Shown here: one piece after another, positions 9,237 to 17,924 of the stretch
Numbering within the stretch: position 1 is the stretch's first letter
Layout of the letters: each line of letters begins with the position of its first letter
Source of the DNA: Candidatus Saccharimonadales bacterium
Lineage (GTDB): Bacteria > Patescibacteriota > Saccharimonadia > Saccharimonadales > Saccharimonadaceae
Direction of reading: 5' to 3'
DNA: 24,000 bases
NCBI GenBank assembly: GCA_049289035.1
Contig: JBAQIV010000048.1
Span: forward strand, 1 to 24,000
The notes under the pieces: model-generated
What the model was told of the DNA's origin: nothing
Databases searched by the model: none
Seen by the model: only the letters and a program-made list of their open reading frames with translations
Program-made: the position numbers and the translations under genes

Positions 9237-10283
9237 TTAGACAATGATACCGCCGCCAAGCACTTCGTCGCCACGGTATAGTACCGCCGACTGACCCGCG
9301 GTCGCCGCCCGTTCCGCTTCCTCGAGCTGCAGGGAGTCTCCTTGCAAACGACACGGTAGCAACTGGCCCCGGTGGCGTAGGCGCGCTAGGAGTACCTCGC
9401 CCTCGCGCGGCGCATCATTGATCCAGTGTATACCTGTCAGCTCGACTGTATCTCGCCACATTGATTCGTCAGATAAGTCACGGCTCACAATCACACGGTT
9501 AGCTGCCATGTCTTTGCCGACCACATAATACGGCAAACCACCGCCCATGCCGAGACCATGCCGCTGGCCAAGCGTGTAGTAGATCGCCCCGTCGTGATAG
9601 CCTATGGCATGTCCTGTCGCTTTATCGATAATTTCACCTGGCTCCGTCGTGACGTACTGACTCAAAAATTCTTTGATCCCGACCGACCCGACGAAGCAAA
9701 TGCCCTGACTATCTTTTTTACGAGCCGTCGCCAAGCCTTTTGCTTCCGCGATGGCACGTACCTCTGTTTTTGTCAGCATCCCAAGTGGAAAGAGGGTCTT
9801 ACCGAGCGCCTCGGAGCTGATGCGGTAGAGGAAGTAGGTTTGGTCTTTGGTTTCATCGCGAGGACGAAGCAATACGGGGTTGGTTTGCTCATTACTTTTC
9901 CCTATTTTTGCATAGTGTCCCGTCGCAATCATATCGGCCCCATCGGCGAGTGCGGTATCGAGAAACAGTTTAAACTTCACCTCTTGGTTGCACATGATGT
10001 CAGGGTTGGGTGTGCGGCTGGCCTGGTATTCACTGATCATATAGTCGACGACCCGCTGTTTGTATTGGGTTTGAAAATCATAGACCTTGAGTGGTATACC
10101 TAGCTGCACCGCGACGCGCTTGGCGTCGGCCAGATCATCGGCCCACGGGCATCTCATACCAGGCAAATCTTGTGTCCAGTTTTTCATATAAATGCCCGTG
10201 ACGTCGTAGCCCTGGTCAACGAGCAGCGACGCCGTCACCGAGCTGTCGACCCCACCGCTCATGCCCACATACACACGCGTCAC
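9237..10283 (-). CDS. mnmA: tRNA-specific 2-thiouridylase MnmA
   Basis: 348-aa ORF with the PP-loop VGMSGGVDSSV at the N-terminus. ATGHYA, DQTYFLY and QGICFVG motifs are present. Length is typical for the family. Confidence 0.9.
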   Translation of the reverse strand: MTRVYVGMSGGVDSSVTASLLVDQGYDVTGIYMKNWTQDLPGMRCPWADDLADAKRVAVQLGIPLKVYDFQTQYKQRVVDYMISEYQASRTPNPDIMCNQEVKFKLFLDTALADGADMIATGHYAKIGKSNEQTNPVLLRPRDETKDQTYFLYRISSEALGKTLFPLGMLTKTEVRAIAEAKGLATARKKDSQGICFVGSVGIKEFLSQYVTTEPGEIIDKATGHAIGYHDGAIYYTLGQRHGLGMGGGLPYYVVGKDMAANRVIVSRDLSDESMWRDTVELTGIHWINDAPREGEVLLARLRHRGQLLPCRLQGDSLQLEEAERAATAGQSAVLYRGDEVLGGGIIV

Positions 10284-10888
10284 GTCACTGCCCCAAGCGT
10301 CACTGACAGCACGAGTATCTTAAACAGCTCGCTATAAGCCAGCCACCACCCAGTCATGGTCAGCCACCAGCGGTCAGTCCATTGTCGATCATGCGCCACC
10401 GGATGATTCATAATTGTCACGGCGTCGCCCAGGCGTGCCCCAAACTCAATCGATGCACGGCGTTGATGATACACGCTCGTCACCAAAATAATCTTTTTAA
10501 TGTTGTTTTTTTGTATAAACAGACCAGTGTTTACCGCATTTTCAGCCGTGGTTTGCGAAAATTCTTCTATCAAGATATCCGACTCTGGCACACCAAGCCC
10601 GAGCGCGTATTTTTTCATAGCTTCGGCATTACTTACCCCCGTTTTATCGGCAGCGGCACCAGAGAAAATCAGACGCCTACCCCAGCCATCTTTGTAGAGC
10701 CGTACGGCTTCGCCGGTACGCGCGGTTGTGTCACCACCGCTAATCGCTACTATGGCATCGGCTGCGGCACATGTACCTGGACGGGGCGCATCACACTGGG
10801 CCAGATCGTCGGGCCCCAAATAGCCAGGCAGTACAAATATCGTAAACCCAGCGGCAAGCGCAATACCGGCGACAAATACGCGTATCAT
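10280..10888 (-). CDS. DUF218 (YdcF/ElyC/SanA-like) domain membrane-anchored protein
   Basis: 202-aa ORF with an N-terminal TM helix. The DUF218 pattern is present: IVAISGGD...RLIFSGAAA...NAEAM...GVPESDILIEE.S..TAENA...ILVTSVYHQRRA. It has 4-nt overlaps with both neighbours. Confidence 0.8.
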   Translation of the reverse strand: MIRVFVAGIALAAGFTIFVLPGYLGPDDLAQCDAPRPGTCAAADAIVAISGGDTTARTGEAVRLYKDGWGRRLIFSGAAADKTGVSNAEAMKKYALGLGVPESDILIEEFSQTTAENAVNTGLFIQKNNIKKIILVTSVYHQRRASIEFGARLGDAVTIMNHPVAHDRQWTDRWWLTMTGWWLAYSELFKILVLSVTLGAVT

Positions 10889-12918: not shown

Positions 12919-13815
12919 TTATTTGAGATGAAATAGATGCGTGGCACTAGCCTCTGTTGCACGCGAGAGCTCCTGGAGATTGATAGACTGGAGATTCGCA
13001 ATATGTTCGGCAACATGCTGTAATAGTGCTGGCTCATTGACTTTACCACGATGAGGCACGGGCGTCAAGTACGGCGCATCTGTTTCGAGTAGAATTTTTT
13101 CATAAGGGATAGCTCGGTAAACCTCTTGGCGGTCACGCGCAAACGTGGCGATACCGTTGACGCCTATCAGGAGGCCACGTGATAGCGCCGCTTCCATATT
13201 TGACAAATTGTCGGTAAAGCTGTGCAATACGCCCCTGAGGCCCTTGTATTGGTCGAAAATAGGCCAAAAATCATCCCAGACCGATGTGCGCCCCTCTAGG
13301 GACGATGCCTCACGCACATGGAAAATAACCGGCAAATTATGCTCGAGTGCTAGTTCAATCTGCGCATGAAGCATGTCGATCTGCTGCTCGCGCGGGGAGT
13401 TGTCGTAGAAGTAGTCGAGACCGATTTCACCGATTGCAACGATGCTCGATATTCGATGTGCGCCAGCCGCATCTGCAGCCTCTCTACTAAAAGTGACTCT
13501 GCTTCCCGCAGTAGGCGCACTGTTCTTTTCAGTGCGCCGGTCACTTTTACGTAGAGAGGCTGCAGATGCGGCTACTATTGCACGAATATCATCTATCGCT
13601 TCCAACCCTCGCACCGCATCATGCGGGTGTAATCCGACTGCCGCCCAAGCGTTGGCGTGCGCCGCGGCAAATTCAACCGCCTCGCGCGACGTCACCTCGT
13701 CTGTCCCGACCACAATCATACGCCCGACGCCAACAGCGAGCGCCCGCTCATACGCCCCCTCGCTGTCGAGGTAACTCGCTTCTTGGATATGACAATGTGT
13801 GTCGGTGAGTGTCAT
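12919..13815 (-). CDS. TatD-family metal-dependent hydrolase/DNase carrying a ~36-40-aa in-frame insertion
   Basis: 298-aa ORF with family motifs DTHCHI, GLHPH, AIGEIGLDY, VIFHVREA, GVLHSF and LETDAPYL. About 60 residues separate HP from IVAIGE, versus about 20 in E. coli YcfH as I remember it. Confidence 0.85.
   Translation of the reverse strand: MTLTDTHCHIQEASYLDSEGAYERALAVGVGRMIVVGTDEVTSREAVEFAAAHANAWAAVGLHPHDAVRGLEAIDDIRAIVAASAASLRKSDRRTEKNSAPTAGSRVTFSREAADAAGAHRISSIVAIGEIGLDYFYDNSPREQQIDMLHAQIELALEHNLPVIFHVREASSLEGRTSVWDDFWPIFDQYKGLRGVLHSFTDNLSNMEAALSRGLLIGVNGIATFARDRQEVYRAIPYEKILLETDAPYLTPVPHRGKVNEPALLQHVAEHIANLQSINLQELSRATEASATHLFHLK
13465..13573. repeat. 109-nt near-perfect palindromic element (33-bp outer stem enclosing two hairpins) inside the tatD-family CDS
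   Basis: 13465-13487 is the exact reverse complement of 13551-13573. After a bulged C at 13550, 13488-13497 pairs with 13540-13549. Inner hairpins lie at 13499-13511 and 13514-13538. Confidence 0.9.
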
Positions 13816-15296
13816 AGCTTTGGTGCGTGCGGGTCGGGCGTATGTAGGTATTTTTTTGGAAACAGTACGCCTTCGTACGGCGTAATGACCCCACCTTCAA
13901 AAATCTTTGTAATCGCAGCGCTCGTGTCAGGCAAAAATGGCGCCAGCAATTCAGCAACTTGCTGCAGCGTACCCGCCGCGTGCAACAAAATTTCTTCCAA
14001 GTGTGCGGCCGCTTCGGGGTCGGTGTCTTTGGTCTTTGCTACCGTCCACGGTTTGACGTCCTCGAGGTACTGGTTGAGCGAGCGTACCGTAAGCCAAACA
14101 TGATCGAGCGCTTTATTGAACTCAAGAGCATGCATCGCCTCATGATACGCGTCTGAGTCATGCTCAGCCTTGACGCCATCACCGACCACACCCTGCTGAT
14201 AGCGGTTGACCATGGCAACCACACGCTGCACGAGGTTGCCCAGTTCGTTACTTAGCTCGTTGTTGTAAGCAGTTTCAAACTTTTCATACGTAAAATCGCC
14301 GTCTTCGAGAGTCGGTATGTGACGCGCAAAGAAATAACGAAAGGCGTCGAGTCCGTATTGGTCGATTATCTCTGATGGGTCGATACCGTTGCCGAGGCTT
14401 TTCGATATCTTTGAGCCACCAATATTCACAAAACCATGCGCCAATATCTTTTTCGGCAGTGGCAACCCAAGACCAAGTAAGATCGCTGGCCAAATAATGG
14501 CGTGAAACCGCAATATATCTTTGCCGATCACCTGCACATCAGCTGGCCAAAATTCGTGCCACGTTTCACTCTGCGGATAGCCAAGTACCGTGATGTAGTT
14601 ACTGAGCGCATCTATCCAGACATAGATGACCTGCTCGGGGTCATCTGGCACCTGCACGCCCCAGCTCAGGCTCTTTTTTGGGCGGCTAATAGACACGTCG
14701 TGCACGCCGTCCTTGATCAGCTCAAGTATCTCATTGCGGCGAAATTCTGGCACAATTCGCATCGTACCCGACGTTATCGCGTCACGGATCTGGTCGGTAA
14801 AATCGCTGCAGCGTAAATAATAATTCTCCTCGCTCAACTGTTCGTATGGTTTTTGGTGGTTCGGACAAATACCGTTCGTTGACTCAACCTCTTTGTCGGT
14901 ATAAAACTGTTCACAGCCCGTGCAATACCAGCCCTGGTACGTATTTTTGTAGATATGCGGACGGAGTTGCTGCCATATATACTGCACTGCTGCGATATGC
15001 TGGGCATCGGTTGTACGAACAACATCGGTAAAGCTCGCGCCAACCTTCTCGGCCATTTGGCGAAAAGCCTGCGAAGACTGGTCCACAAACGTCTGCGGTG
15101 CTATACCGTGCTCGGCGGCTTTCATGGCATTTTTGTTGCCATGTTCGTCAGTGCCTATCTGATAGCGAACTTCTTGGCCGTTGACCCTATGATACCGCGC
15201 CCAAATGTCCGCCAGCAAATAGTCCATAGCATGCCCAATATGCGGTGCGCCGTTGACATAGGGAATAGCGGTCGTAATATATAATTTTTTGCTCAT
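13812..15296 (-). CDS. metG: Methionine--tRNA ligase (short form)
   Basis: Motifs YITTAIPYVNGAPHIGHA (HIGH) and KISKSLGN (KMSKS) are present. The ORF track starts at GTG 15302. I prefer ATG 15296 (MSKKLYITT...) because a TATAAT box at 15310-15305 would exclude the GTG from the transcript. The stop overlaps the tatD-family start by 4 nt. Confidence 0.92.
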   Translation of the reverse strand: MSKKLYITTAIPYVNGAPHIGHAMDYLLADIWARYHRVNGQEVRYQIGTDEHGNKNAMKAAEHGIAPQTFVDQSSQAFRQMAEKVGASFTDVVRTTDAQHIAAVQYIWQQLRPHIYKNTYQGWYCTGCEQFYTDKEVESTNGICPNHQKPYEQLSEENYYLRCSDFTDQIRDAITSGTMRIVPEFRRNEILELIKDGVHDVSISRPKKSLSWGVQVPDDPEQVIYVWIDALSNYITVLGYPQSETWHEFWPADVQVIGKDILRFHAIIWPAILLGLGLPLPKKILAHGFVNIGGSKISKSLGNGIDPSEIIDQYGLDAFRYFFARHIPTLEDGDFTYEKFETAYNNELSNELGNLVQRVVAMVNRYQQGVVGDGVKAEHDSDAYHEAMHALEFNKALDHVWLTVRSLNQYLEDVKPWTVAKTKDTDPEAAAHLEEILLHAAGTLQQVAELLAPFLPDTSAAITKIFEGGVITPYEGVLFPKKYLHTPDPHAPKL

Positions 15297-15329
15297 TGCC
15301 ACCTATTATATCCTATTTTCCTCTTTCCC

Positions 15330-15383
15330 CTGCTATAAGGTTCAACCCTGAGCAATATTGCTCAGGGTTGAACCTTATAGCAG
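15330..15383. repeat. Perfect 54-nt palindrome (two inverted 27-nt REP-like units) flanking the transposase gene
   Basis: CTGCTATAAGGTTCAACCCTGAGCAAT followed directly by its exact reverse complement. It abuts the transposase stop codon (15384-15386). Confidence 0.95.
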
Positions 15384-15983
15384 TTATCCGGCAAGCTGTT
15401 TTGACAGCAACTTTAGTTCGTCACGACGATCGACATAGTCATCGAGAAACTTCCTGTAATTACTCACATCCGGCAGCAGCTCCGTGTTAAGCCACGCGGC
15501 GTGTTTGTCGCCTAGGTAATAGCCAAGGCTCGACCATGGCCATCGTATATAATCTTCTGGATTGAGGTGGATGTACCGACTGATATGTGCAAATTGTGCG
15601 TCATCAGTCATTCGCACCGCCCGATATCGCTGCTGAAAAACAGTACCGACATGATGATATTTCCTGTTAAAATACATGCTATAGGCCGTCCCGATAGAAG
15701 TAAGAAGTTTTTTCATACCATCTTTTGAACTTTGATACACTAGCAAATGATAATGGTTCGGCATAAGACAATACGCCATAAGACTCACCTCTTTTGCATA
15801 ACACGGATACGGTTGACGGTTGGGCATTTTTGCGCCTTTTGGATCAAGATACCTTTTAAACAAGCTTAAGAATACCTCATAATCCTCATCGTCACGAAAA
15901 ACTTTTTGCTTTGATGCTCCCCTGTTATAAACATGGTAGTAAGAATCCTCAACATAGACTTTTGTCACATTTTTTGCAGGCAT
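15384..15983 (-). CDS. IS200/IS605-family HUH tyrosine (Y1) transposase, REP-associated (RAYT-like)
   Basis: HUH motif in YCLMPNHYHLLV. Also YYHVYNRG, YFNRKY..GTVFQQRY and the tyrosine-helix motif SRYIHLNP. I start at ATG 15983 (MPAKNV...). The 15 extra codons of the track ORF (to 16028) are read out of the flanking palindrome. Confidence 0.8.
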   Translation of the reverse strand: MPAKNVTKVYVEDSYYHVYNRGASKQKVFRDDEDYEVFLSLFKRYLDPKGAKMPNRQPYPCYAKEVSLMAYCLMPNHYHLLVYQSSKDGMKKLLTSIGTAYSMYFNRKYHHVGTVFQQRYRAVRMTDDAQFAHISRYIHLNPEDYIRWPWSSLGYYLGDKHAAWLNTELLPDVSNYRKFLDDYVDRRDELKLLSKQLAG

Positions 15984-16011
15984 ATATTCATCATACGCCT
16001 CTTCGCGATTT

Positions 16012-16069
16012 CCTGCTATAAGGTTCAACCCCGAGCAATAGTTTGCTCAGGGTTGAACCTTATAGCAGG
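16012..16069. repeat. 58-nt near-perfect palindrome, second copy of the REP-like doublet
   Basis: CCTGCTATAAGGTTCAACCCCGAGCAA-TAGT-TTGCTCAGGGTTGAACCTTATAGCAGG. It forms 27 bp with one C/A mismatch and uses the same 27-nt unit as 15330-15383. Confidence 0.95.
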
Positions 16070-16740: not shown

Positions 16741-17490
16741 TTATGGTGTCATGACCGCTGCAACCATCATACGGCCCTGGCGATCTGAGCGATCCAGCTC
16801 AGTCGCGGCGCGGTGCGAGTAGTAACGCTCGTCGGTGTAGGTATTGATCGGGCTGACGTAGATACTGCCTGGCTTTACACCCAGCCGCTCGAATCGATCG
16901 CGGTTATGGCCGGGTATGTCGATGTGTATCATGCCGTCTGCTCCTGGTCGTTGCCAGGCCTGCCACTGCTCGGGGTGCGGCGGGGTAAAATACGTCATGC
17001 GATCGTGGTCGGGCTTGAGGCTCGGGCTCATCCAGACATGCCAGTCGCGCGGATCCGAACCCACTTCGTCGGCCACGCGTATGGCAAATTCTTCGATCAG
17101 CCCCGCCACACTGGCGTGGCGACCGAGGTGCAACACACCGAATAGATGTGCCACGGGGTCGTATACCACCGTCGCTACACAGTCTGCCACCGGCAGGGTG
17201 ATGACTTTGCCCGAGATCGTCGTAAACAGCGCATCACATTTGATCGCACCTGCTGTGTCTGCATCGACTCGCTCGATGTGCGTATAGGTATTTTCTGGTA
17301 GGTACGTGACAAAAACCTTTGCCCGCCCCTCCGGCTCAAAGCCATATTTTTTCAAAAAAACTTCTGTATTTTGCTCATGTTCTGGTAGCGATGGTTTGCC
17401 GCCACCCGCCGCAATCGACCCATCCTCGACGCTCGAAAACACCACGTGAACACCATGAGGAAAAGTGTCGATAGGTTTATATGTTTTCAT
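16741..17490 (-). CDS. pgeF: YfiH/PgeF-family (DUF152, laccase-domain) protein
   Basis: 249-aa ORF with LPVADCVATVVYDP and GVLHLGRHASVAGL, matching the family ADC...H.GW.G pattern. The tail is YYSHRAA...GRMMVAAV. Several canonical residues diverge, so confidence is moderate. Confidence 0.65.
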   Translation of the reverse strand: MKTYKPIDTFPHGVHVVFSSVEDGSIAAGGGKPSLPEHEQNTEVFLKKYGFEPEGRAKVFVTYLPENTYTHIERVDADTAGAIKCDALFTTISGKVITLPVADCVATVVYDPVAHLFGVLHLGRHASVAGLIEEFAIRVADEVGSDPRDWHVWMSPSLKPDHDRMTYFTPPHPEQWQAWQRPGADGMIHIDIPGHNRDRFERLGVKPGSIYVSPINTYTDERYYSHRAATELDRSDRQGRMMVAAVMTP

Positions 17491-17516
17491 ATAGTATTTA
17501 TCTTATCATCAAATGG

Positions 17517-17546
17517 TATGAGCCAGGATGTTACTCCTGGCTCATA
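17517..17546 (-). terminator. Putative terminator hairpin after the small membrane-protein gene
   Basis: Perfect 12-bp stem TATGAGCCAGGA / TCCTGGCTCATA with a 6-nt loop, 22 nt past the stop at 17568. On the minus strand it is followed by CCATTTGATGA, a weak U-tract. Confidence 0.5.
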
Positions 17547-17567
17547 CGTTCTGCTCGAGTGGAACTG

Positions 17568-17924
17568 TCACGCAGCGGCGCGTGCCGCGGTGATGGCACG
17601 CCGGACATACATGTCCGACCAACCACACACCAGCAGCATGACGGTCGCACCGACGACGAAGAAGATGGTATCGGTGGGCATGAGCTCAGACCTTCGCACC
17701 TGCATCGCAAGAGCGAAGACCTCCACCATGATGGAGCATGTGTACATACCCAACATGGGGGTACCGTACATGCCGAGCGTCTTGTGCGCGAGGTAGTCCT
17801 CGGCGTAGACGATACCCGTCTCGCCTGCAGACTCGGCCATGTGCGCGTGGTACAACGCCATTCCCACAGCCAGAGCCGCAACGAACAGCAACAGGCCGAT
17901 GGTTGTGATCTGGAAGGTGTTCAT
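17568..17924 (-). CDS. Small hypothetical membrane protein (118 aa, about 3 TM helices), compositionally foreign
   Basis: ATG 17924 is preceded by GAAAGG 7 nt upstream and by a consensus promoter. The hydrophobic segments are plausible TM helices. By my hand count about 95 of 118 codons end in G/C, unlike the flanking genes. Two other long frames overlap it, as expected in a GC-rich stretch. Confidence 0.55.
   Translation of the reverse strand: MNTFQITTIGLLLFVAALAVGMALYHAHMAESAGETGIVYAEDYLAHKTLGMYGTPMLGMYTCSIMVEVFALAMQVRRSELMPTDTIFFVVGATVMLLVCGWSDMYVRRAITAARAAA

Follow-up and report, generated by a model that had tools for sequence, protein, structure and literature searches.

How does a long, near-perfect palindrome come to lie within the reading frame of a conserved enzyme, and what keeps it palindromic once it is there? 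The question is raised by the tatD-family gene of a Candidatus Saccharimonadales bacterium (assembly GCA_049289035.1, contig JBAQIV010000048.1, positions 1 to 24,000; this 24 kb stretch is referred to as the window, and coordinates are window positions). The initial annotation of this DNA described a 109-nt palindrome translated in frame within the gene, and likened it to the miniature palindromic elements of Rickettsia or to a doublet of the REPIN type. The palindrome is one homologous element, collinear in three species-level lineages and located in each at the same codon position; both of its arms have changed and the stems still pair, while the amino acids they encode vary. We tentatively interpret it as a single-locus, vertically inherited, translated DNA palindrome, the arms of which evolve in concert.

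A compound palindrome within tatD

The host gene and the parts of the element are as follows:

12919–13815, minus strand: TatD-family hydrolase gene (298 aa), host of the element; open reading frame (ORF) matching Pfam PF01026 TatD_DNase
13465–13573, minus strand: 109-nt compound palindrome, translated as TatD residues 82–117; folds with z of about −13
13465–13487: outer-stem arm, exact reverse complement (23/23) of 13551–13573
13551–13573: outer-stem arm, partner of 13465–13487, adjoined by the single bulge C13550
13488–13497: inner-stem arm TAAAAGTGAC, pairing with 13540–13549 (10/10)
13540–13549: inner-stem arm GTCACTTTTA, partner of 13488–13497
13514–13538: 9-bp hairpin with a 7-nt loop, the first hairpin in the coding sense
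13499–13511: 4-bp hairpin with a 5-nt loop, GGGAA in the coding sense
13486–13549, minus strand: 64-nt conserved core, TAAAAGTGACCGG...CCTAyTGCGGGAAGCArAsTCACTTTTAGT

The arms, the bulge and both inner hairpins all lie where the initial annotation had placed them, and together form a three-way junction in which an outer stem of 23 + 10 bp closes the 9-bp and 4-bp hairpins. This junction is recovered by folding of the single sequence as well as by RNAalifold. The coding-strand RNA of the element folds with an energy of −90.6 kcal/mol (z = −13.0, equalled by none of 200 shuffles), and the DNA fold has a z of −13.5; at a z of about −13 the fold is far beyond chance, in agreement with the proposal that the symmetry has no protein-coding explanation. 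Nothing else in the 24 kb stands out as strongly as the element in a sliding 120-nt scan of minimum free energy (MFE; GC-corrected z = −8.3), and no outliers other than two hairpins beside a transposase gene were seen. The 23-mer arm occurs at two sites in the window, both within the element, with none expected. Inspection of the flank reveals no U tract 3′ of the element, no tRNA overlapping the element was found, and Rfam 15 gives no match in the window at the gathering score and only noise on the element at E ≤ 10. Repeats of 7–8 nt common to the 3′ flank and the 9-bp hairpin were dropped, a rough estimate showing them to be consistent with chance.

The element is read without a stop as AASAASLRKSDRRTEKNSAPTAGSRVTFSREAADAA (~37 codons). 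Pfam PF01026 matches the ORF over its full length (E = 2e-63), NCBIfam TIGR00010 matches in two stretches interrupted by the insert, and the catalytic-motif residues H7, H9, E130, H166, H198, and D246 are invariant in the TatD alignment. The stretch from the HPH motif to GEIGLDY, put at about 60 residues in the initial annotation, measures 63 residues here compared with the 24–31 usual among 120 relatives (mode 26–30), and alignment to the solved YcfH/TatD structures breaks at the insert (query residues 70 to 124 against chain residues 86 to 102 of 6l25). An AlphaFold2 model of TatD has a mean predicted local distance difference test score (pLDDT) of 81.8, falling to 46–59 over insert residues 91–120, which are flanked by a helix (72–96) and a strand (125–133). 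The model places the insert in the α3–β4 loop of the TIM barrel, on its non-catalytic side; in this fold the α-to-β loops lie on the face opposite the catalytic face. The insert peptide varies and has predicted disorder. With an open frame, a low-pLDDT loop, and intact catalytic residues, the description of an in-frame insert in a TatD surface loop is well supported.

Two other features of tatD were observed. A second indel of 9–10 residues (window 13276–13305, residues 171–180, SSLEGRTSVW) is phylogenetically scattered, being present in P0001, P0003, P0007, P0008, P0014, P0026, and others, and absent from the remaining relatives, including the palindrome carriers P0002 and P0004. Near the 3′ end of the gene, a 37-nt block (window 12963–12999, minus strand, GCGAATCTCCAGTCTATCAATCTCCAGGAGCTCTCGC) encodes IANLQSINLQELS and contains AATCTCCAG twice. 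Examined at the window and 17 related loci, this block is identical, third codon positions included, in seven of eight diverse lineages, with the eighth (L011) differing by one base, and the lineages in which it is identical have neighbouring proteins that are merely 53–83% identical. The block is under nucleotide-level constraint.

Pairing is conserved between species

Among the 120 best TatD relatives, a homologous insert is present in only two further 90%-identity clusters, P0002 and P0004, with TatD 72% and 65% identical to the window protein respectively; the insert occupies exactly the same position in both and is absent from most relatives. The DNA of these orthologues (L005 and L006, which together with the window are referred to as the carriers) forms the same three-way junction at the same codon position. 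Covariation was assessed on an ungapped 128-nt alignment of the three distinct sequences, comprising 46 pairs and 138 pair cells. Standard pairs fill 94.2% of the cells, compared with 34–45% after sliding the 3′ partners by 1–3 columns, both sides have changed at 18 of the 46 pairs, and none of 500 shuffles reaches any of the five measures used. RNAalifold independently yields the same structure from the three-carrier alignment.

Seventeen of the 23 outer-stem pairs vary among the carriers, 12 of them by double changes. In the 9-bp hairpin, the arms of which read GGCGCACTG/CAGTGCGCC, GGCACATTG/CAATGTGCC, and GGAAAATCG/CGATTTTCC, five of nine pairs are double-changed and all 27 cells are Watson-Crick. 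The residues encoded by the covarying stems are RRT..SAP, RHI..NVP, and RKI..DFP in the three carriers, and because the letters of the 9-bp hairpin and the encoded residues change together, it is the pairing rather than the peptide that is conserved. The inner stem is invariant in sequence, with the exception of one C.C cell, and the 4-bp hairpin has an invariant loop and one compensatory pair (C-G to U-A).

The types of pair bear on which strand the symmetry belongs to. The cells comprise 127 Watson-Crick pairs, 3 G.U pairs, and 8 mismatches, two of the latter being C.A, which would read as G.U on the opposite strand. Of 69 core cells, 68 are Watson-Crick and none is G.U (P ~1.5e-4 if 12% G.U is expected). 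Roughly 8 of 19 double changes, by manual classification of the pair table, are of the transversion type, and hence without a wobble intermediate. No antisense ORF is kept across the element in the carriers. The scarcity of G.U pairs, together with the lack of strand asymmetry and of an antisense ORF, leaves no signature of selection on one strand, and the symmetry is that of DNA.

Conservation is concentrated in the interior of the element. Two of 14 pairs vary in the inner stem and 4-bp hairpin, compared with 22 of 32 in the outer stem and 9-bp hairpin (p = 0.001), and the loops and junction bases are almost invariant, with 2 of 17 unpaired core positions varying. Codons for invariant residues have an invariant third base in 13 of 14 cases within the core, the corresponding count elsewhere in tatD being 63 of 157 (Fisher p = 1.3e-4). 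This conservation looks like selection on the sequence itself, but could also come from pairing coupled to a modest peptide constraint. By a sliding profile, divergence within tatD peaks in the outer arms and the flanks next to them (41–52% identity), and a recent transfer that would make the element younger than its gene was rejected on this basis. Two strains differ at 21 tatD sites, none of them in the element (2.6 expected, P ~0.07).

The TatD loop in other lineages

Among the 120 relatives, about 15 have an enlarged loop of unrelated sequence between HPH and GEIGLDY. The L009 loop (~10275–10305) contains four 7-nt tandem repeats of ACGATGG/ACGATAG, the L010 loop (~10330–10360) contains three of TATTCGA, and in L005 and L006 repeats of the CGTCCAA type lie immediately 3′ of the palindrome. 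The inserts of L011 and L012 have no fold (z between 0 and −1.4), and that of P0006 no longer folds. In L011, an 18-nt inverted repeat (L011:77–187, 89% complementary, 75 nt apart) was also observed in the annotated N-terminal extension of the P0097 TatD; it may be another hairpin element, perhaps truly in 5′ untranslated DNA.

The more distant L025 (P0104, TatD 56% identical) carries an in-frame compound palindrome of 145 nt in the same loop (L025:1658–1802), with an outer stem of ~25 bp that closes a pair of hairpins (−93 kcal/mol, z = −10.5). Its sequence is not similar to that of the window element, and it shares none of the conserved core motifs. A further compound palindrome of 196 nt lies at L025:3013–3208, with perfect 25-bp termini (GAAACTTCCTCTTATCTTATCGACC), an RNA MFE of −109 kcal/mol, and a DNA z of −6.7; it fills a lineage-specific intergenic gap of 247 nt that measures only 3 nt in the window genome. 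The 196-nt palindrome is dissimilar to the tatD palindrome 1.3 kb upstream of it, with a likeness of 20/28 in one arm not significant.

The TatD of L026 (P0007) corresponds to the 91%-identical, insert-free P0033 with a clean insertion of 41 residues in the same loop. This insertion folds weakly (z = −3.4) and shares only two short collinear matches with the window element (z = 3.6). A covariance-model match of 26 bits was withdrawn as evidence of homology, because the model gives the unrelated hairpins beside the transposase gene 23–30 bits. The closest palindrome-free relative, P0003, still has the tail of the insert that is not palindromic. Where the carriers have the palindrome, it has a short hairpin, TCCGCC-CGCCAGCT-GGCGGA, corresponding to the stem base; this state looks like a collapse of the hairpin interior. 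For the neighbouring genes IscS, MnmA, and DUF218, the window and L006 carriers are closest to each other, and these identities fit a single gain by a small clade, with some descendants later undergoing decay or collapse of the element. The TatD loop is thus a permissive, recurrent site for slippage- and hairpin-type insertions.

Searches for further copies

The element was proposed to be mobile, and the searches made here give this no support, as no second copy was found wherever searched. Within the window, searches with the arms and with covariance model R1 find no second copy; across ~150 kb of related loci there is likewise none, with R1 finding only the tatD copies, and the single core match in the L006 metagenome-assembled genome (MAG) is its tatD copy. 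The larger collections were scanned for exact matches at 19–21 specified core bases with 2–3 free positions, and because an exact core match is needed, these scans are blind to copies even 5–10% diverged, and diverged relatives at low copy number may exist. In 185,579 genomes, one per species, the exact pattern of the invariant 3′ core finds only the L006 tatD and one chance match, and in the JGI metagenomes it finds five matches (L015–L019), all chance. The matches in L014 (Latescibacterota) and L015–L019 have no partner arm and do not fold, and were therefore attributed to chance.

Phage and plasmid collections contain no genuine copy by the exact core pattern. In IMG/VR, the inner inverted repeat gives 48 matches, about the number expected by chance (30–40 by a rough estimate), and the covariance model recognises none of these matches. 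At the protein level, the 47-residue insert was scanned exhaustively with HMMER against 1.84 billion representatives, and no translated copy was found in other proteins, the five matches obtained all being DUF11-type repeat proteins and attributed to chance.

Proposed concerted evolution of the arms

A small clade may have received the element through one ancestral entry into the loop, a site that was permissive and prone to slippage; the origin would have been either a replication error or a hairpin element. The element would since have been inherited vertically, decaying or collapsing in some descendants, with the ribosome reading through it as a disordered passenger peptide. Its persistence would be due mainly to DNA-level concerted evolution of both arms, with intramolecular template switching or hairpin-templated repair during replication copying one arm from the other, and selection acting only for an open frame and a tolerable peptide. 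Such a “protein-coding palindrome” would be self-perpetuating and non-transposing, and would need no dedicated cellular function.

Template switching both generates and repairs perfect stems (PMC8794818), and the perfect outer stem and Watson-Crick-dominated symmetry of the element fit this published behaviour. The element also resembles template-switch quasipalindromes in its Watson-Crick arms, its multi-base compensatory changes without wobble, its local, single-locus origin, and the slippage repeats nearby (PMC8794818, PMC5453318), although the cases described have short stems and lie mostly in RNA genes or non-coding DNA. As to an ancestral sequence from which one arm could have been copied, P0003 retains only the stem base. 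To our knowledge, no compound palindrome of 46 bp, in frame in an enzyme gene across species and with a conserved core, has been described.

Several observations weigh against this account. The far stronger conservation of the core than of the periphery is unexplained by template switching alone and looks like sequence-specific selection, and the compensatory change in the 4-bp hairpin is hard to ascribe to template switching. The gain of a clean hairpin insert by P0007 inside an insert-free clade hints at recurrent insertion. Furthermore, the comparison comprises only three independent sequences, the template-switch event is itself inferred, and the copy-number evidence is of limited power, with the organism of the window covered by the window and not by a complete genome. 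It is because the conserved core is not explained by concerted evolution alone that we hold this interpretation tentatively.

A possible selected structure

The same core would be explained by a functional structured nucleic acid within the ORF, to which the peptide would be incidental. This could be a three-way-junction RNA in the tatD (metG-tatD) transcript, with the 33-bp duplex serving as an entry site for RNase III or decay, or a ribosome-pausing element tuning the expression of TatD; alternatively, the DNA could form a hairpin or cruciform to which a protein binds. Strong covariation extends to all four helices, the 64-nt core is near-invariant with its unpaired loops and junction included, its synonymous sites are conserved, the element is unchanged between strains that differ elsewhere in tatD, and the distant L025 shows this architecture in the corresponding place. 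However, the L025 palindrome lacks any conserved core motif, the structure has decayed or collapsed in the close relatives P0003 and P0006 and is absent from most of the family, and no Rfam family was matched even at the permissive threshold. The flank offers no terminator-like U tract, and the lack of G.U enrichment and of strand asymmetry argues against selection on the sense RNA alone. A functional structure, the main rival to concerted evolution, is on balance rather unlikely, if clearly worth considering. Less likely again is a broader alternative, in which the element is not junk but either a three-way-junction structure maintained by selection in the tatD frame (a processing or regulatory site, or a protein-bound DNA hairpin) or a hairpin element that repeatedly targets this loop and spreads between Saccharimonadales lineages; if true, either would be the first such structure or element described in candidate phyla radiation (CPR) bacteria.

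A possible mobile hairpin family

The element may also be what remains of a mobile hairpin family, or belong to one with few copies, resembling RPEs (Rickettsia palindromic elements), transposable elements of the miniature inverted-repeat kind (MITEs), or REPIN/PATE elements, moving as single-stranded DNA by means of a Y1/HUH transposase and surviving in genes only where loops are permissive. A candidate transposase gene lies 1.8 kb from the tatD element, between two hairpins with 27-bp stems:

15384–16028, minus strand, probable start 15983: Y1/IS200-like, RAYT-like transposase gene (Pfam Y1_Tnp, 44 bits)
15330–15383: perfect 54-nt palindrome with a 27-bp stem, bracketing the transposase gene
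16012–16069: palindrome with 27-nt arms 96% complementary and a 4-nt spacer, bracketing the transposase gene and near-identical to 15330–15383

The transposase scores 44.6 bits against NCBIfam REP_Tyr_transpos, below the cut-off of 80, and the arrangement at 15330–16069, which has no match in IMG/VR, is REP/RAYT-like and lies in a Saccharimonadales genome. Its hairpins (CTGCTATAAGGTTCAACCCTGAGCAAT) have no repeat seed in common with the tatD element.

RPEs are palindromic, in-frame inserts of ~100–150 bp in the genes of housekeeping enzymes, located in loops away from the active site and kept at orthologous sites in related species (PMC10969869, PMC1779305). The element resembles them in its length of 109 nt, its stable hairpin, its in-frame position in an intact gene, and the retention of its orthologous site, and this precedent speaks for a mobile origin. 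In contrast to the element, RPEs are interspersed families with tens to hundreds of copies, both genic and intergenic; the element additionally differs in its CPR host, which belongs to an unrelated phylum, its three-way junction, and the conservation of its interior rather than of the whole. The comparison with RPEs made in the initial annotation therefore holds for the outcome, a palindrome tolerated in frame, and not for the repeat family, as no second copy was found.

REPINs are hairpins of ~100 nt formed by two inverted arms, with compensatory changes in their stems (PMC3116915). The element likewise has inverted arms and a spacer, with compensatory changes, and has a RAYT-like gene with hairpins nearby; however, REPINs are extragenic, highly repeated, and share their REP sequence with the flanks of the cognate RAYT, none of which applies to the element. 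The reading as a REPIN-type doublet fails on location, copy number, and sequence, the element being intragenic, apparently single, and unrelated to the RAYT-flanking hairpins. In contrast to MITEs, the element has flanks (...AATAGT / GGCGCA...) that are not direct repeats, and thus no target-site duplication; the empty-site-like P0003 has a short palindrome rather than a single copy of the target, no other copies were found, and the only transposase of the window has unrelated ends. PARCELs are also coding DNA with dyad symmetry, but consist of an amphipathic 25-residue motif repeated in tandem, within ORFs that have no known function (PMC2996958), and membership was rejected for the single insert in an enzyme on account of these tandem repeats.

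Beyond the RPE precedent and the neighbouring transposase, a mobile origin is favoured by the clean, hairpin-containing 41-residue gain of P0007, with its short collinear matches to the element, and by the two long, unrelated palindromes found within 1.5 kb in L025, one of them intergenic and lineage-specific. Against this, the P0007 covariance-model match is no evidence of homology, the two L025 palindromes are mutually dissimilar, the RAYT-flanking hairpins share no sequence with the element, no target-site duplication is seen at its boundaries, and no second copy was found wherever searched. Furthermore, a conserved interior with variable termini is the opposite of what recognition of the termini by a transposase would produce. 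Membership of a mobile family is thus doubtful, and because there is no second copy and the RAYT hairpins are unrelated, the element is RPE-like in outcome without being shown to belong to the RPEs, REPINs, or MITEs.

Improbable readings: protein loop or assembly artefact

An old, lineage-specific protein loop kept by selection on the peptide, with the palindromy incidental, is highly improbable. The three carriers do share invariant residues (KSDR, EKN, P.AGS, and TFS), but the residues of the covarying stems change freely whilst pairing is kept, by which this explanation is effectively refuted; moreover, the third codon positions of the core are frozen, a fold z of −13 is unattainable from coding constraints, and the model has low confidence over the insert. 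The initial annotation would have accepted an ancient loop had the segment been single-copy and its equally long orthologues conserved in amino-acid sequence but non-palindromic: the element does appear to be single-copy, but the equally long orthologues keep the palindrome, and since they do so through compensatory changes, an old protein loop alone does not describe it.

An assembly or foldback artefact is of negligible probability: chimeric reads can generate palindromes, and the Logan contigs of this organism break at a different palindrome, but at least five independent assemblies agree, with identical tatD DNA in four Logan assemblies from different runs and in an NCBI MAG (MFZ1812500.1, Candidatus Saccharimonadales), the element is unchanged in a variant strain, L022, with 98.8% identity across 12.4 kb, the P0004 version is present in 24 contigs from three sources, and diverged homologous copies with an open frame occur in two other species from other samples. 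The Logan contigs concerned (L001–L004 and L022) all start, with position 1 at window ~15357, at the centre of the perfect palindrome on the RAYT side; such contig ends reflect a break in the k-mer graph, and alone are no evidence of repeated sequence.

Gene order and neighbouring features

In the window, at 13812–15302, metG directly abuts tatD. In the relatives compared (L006, L009, L010, and L012), a divergent NAD-synthase gene lies directly upstream of tatD, with longer relative contigs having a multi-gene block from NAPRTase to NAD synthase upstream, and in L010 metG is found ~8 kb upstream. The metG-tatD junction is a rearrangement beside the transposase gene. Elsewhere, window 17431–17625, directly upstream of the start of the gene at 16741–17490, is moderately over-folded (GC-corrected z down to −3.8).

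Implications

The element appears to be the first in-frame palindrome found for CPR/Saccharibacteria, with a search of the literature giving no earlier case, and its single locus, its three-way-junction shape, and its maintenance by covariation across species are unusual features. For annotation, it cautions that what constrains part of a “conserved insertion” in a protein can be the nucleic acid and not the protein. It also provides a natural test case for whether covariation in a stem always reflects selection on structure, or whether template switching is sufficient to maintain a palindrome. In-frame “protein-coding palindromes” have so far been regarded as a peculiarity of Rickettsia, and the same outcome is now seen in the Saccharibacteria, another lineage of symbionts with reduced genomes, here without a detectable repeat family. 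The tatD palindrome thereby illustrates how the enzymes of tiny genomes gain new loop sequence.

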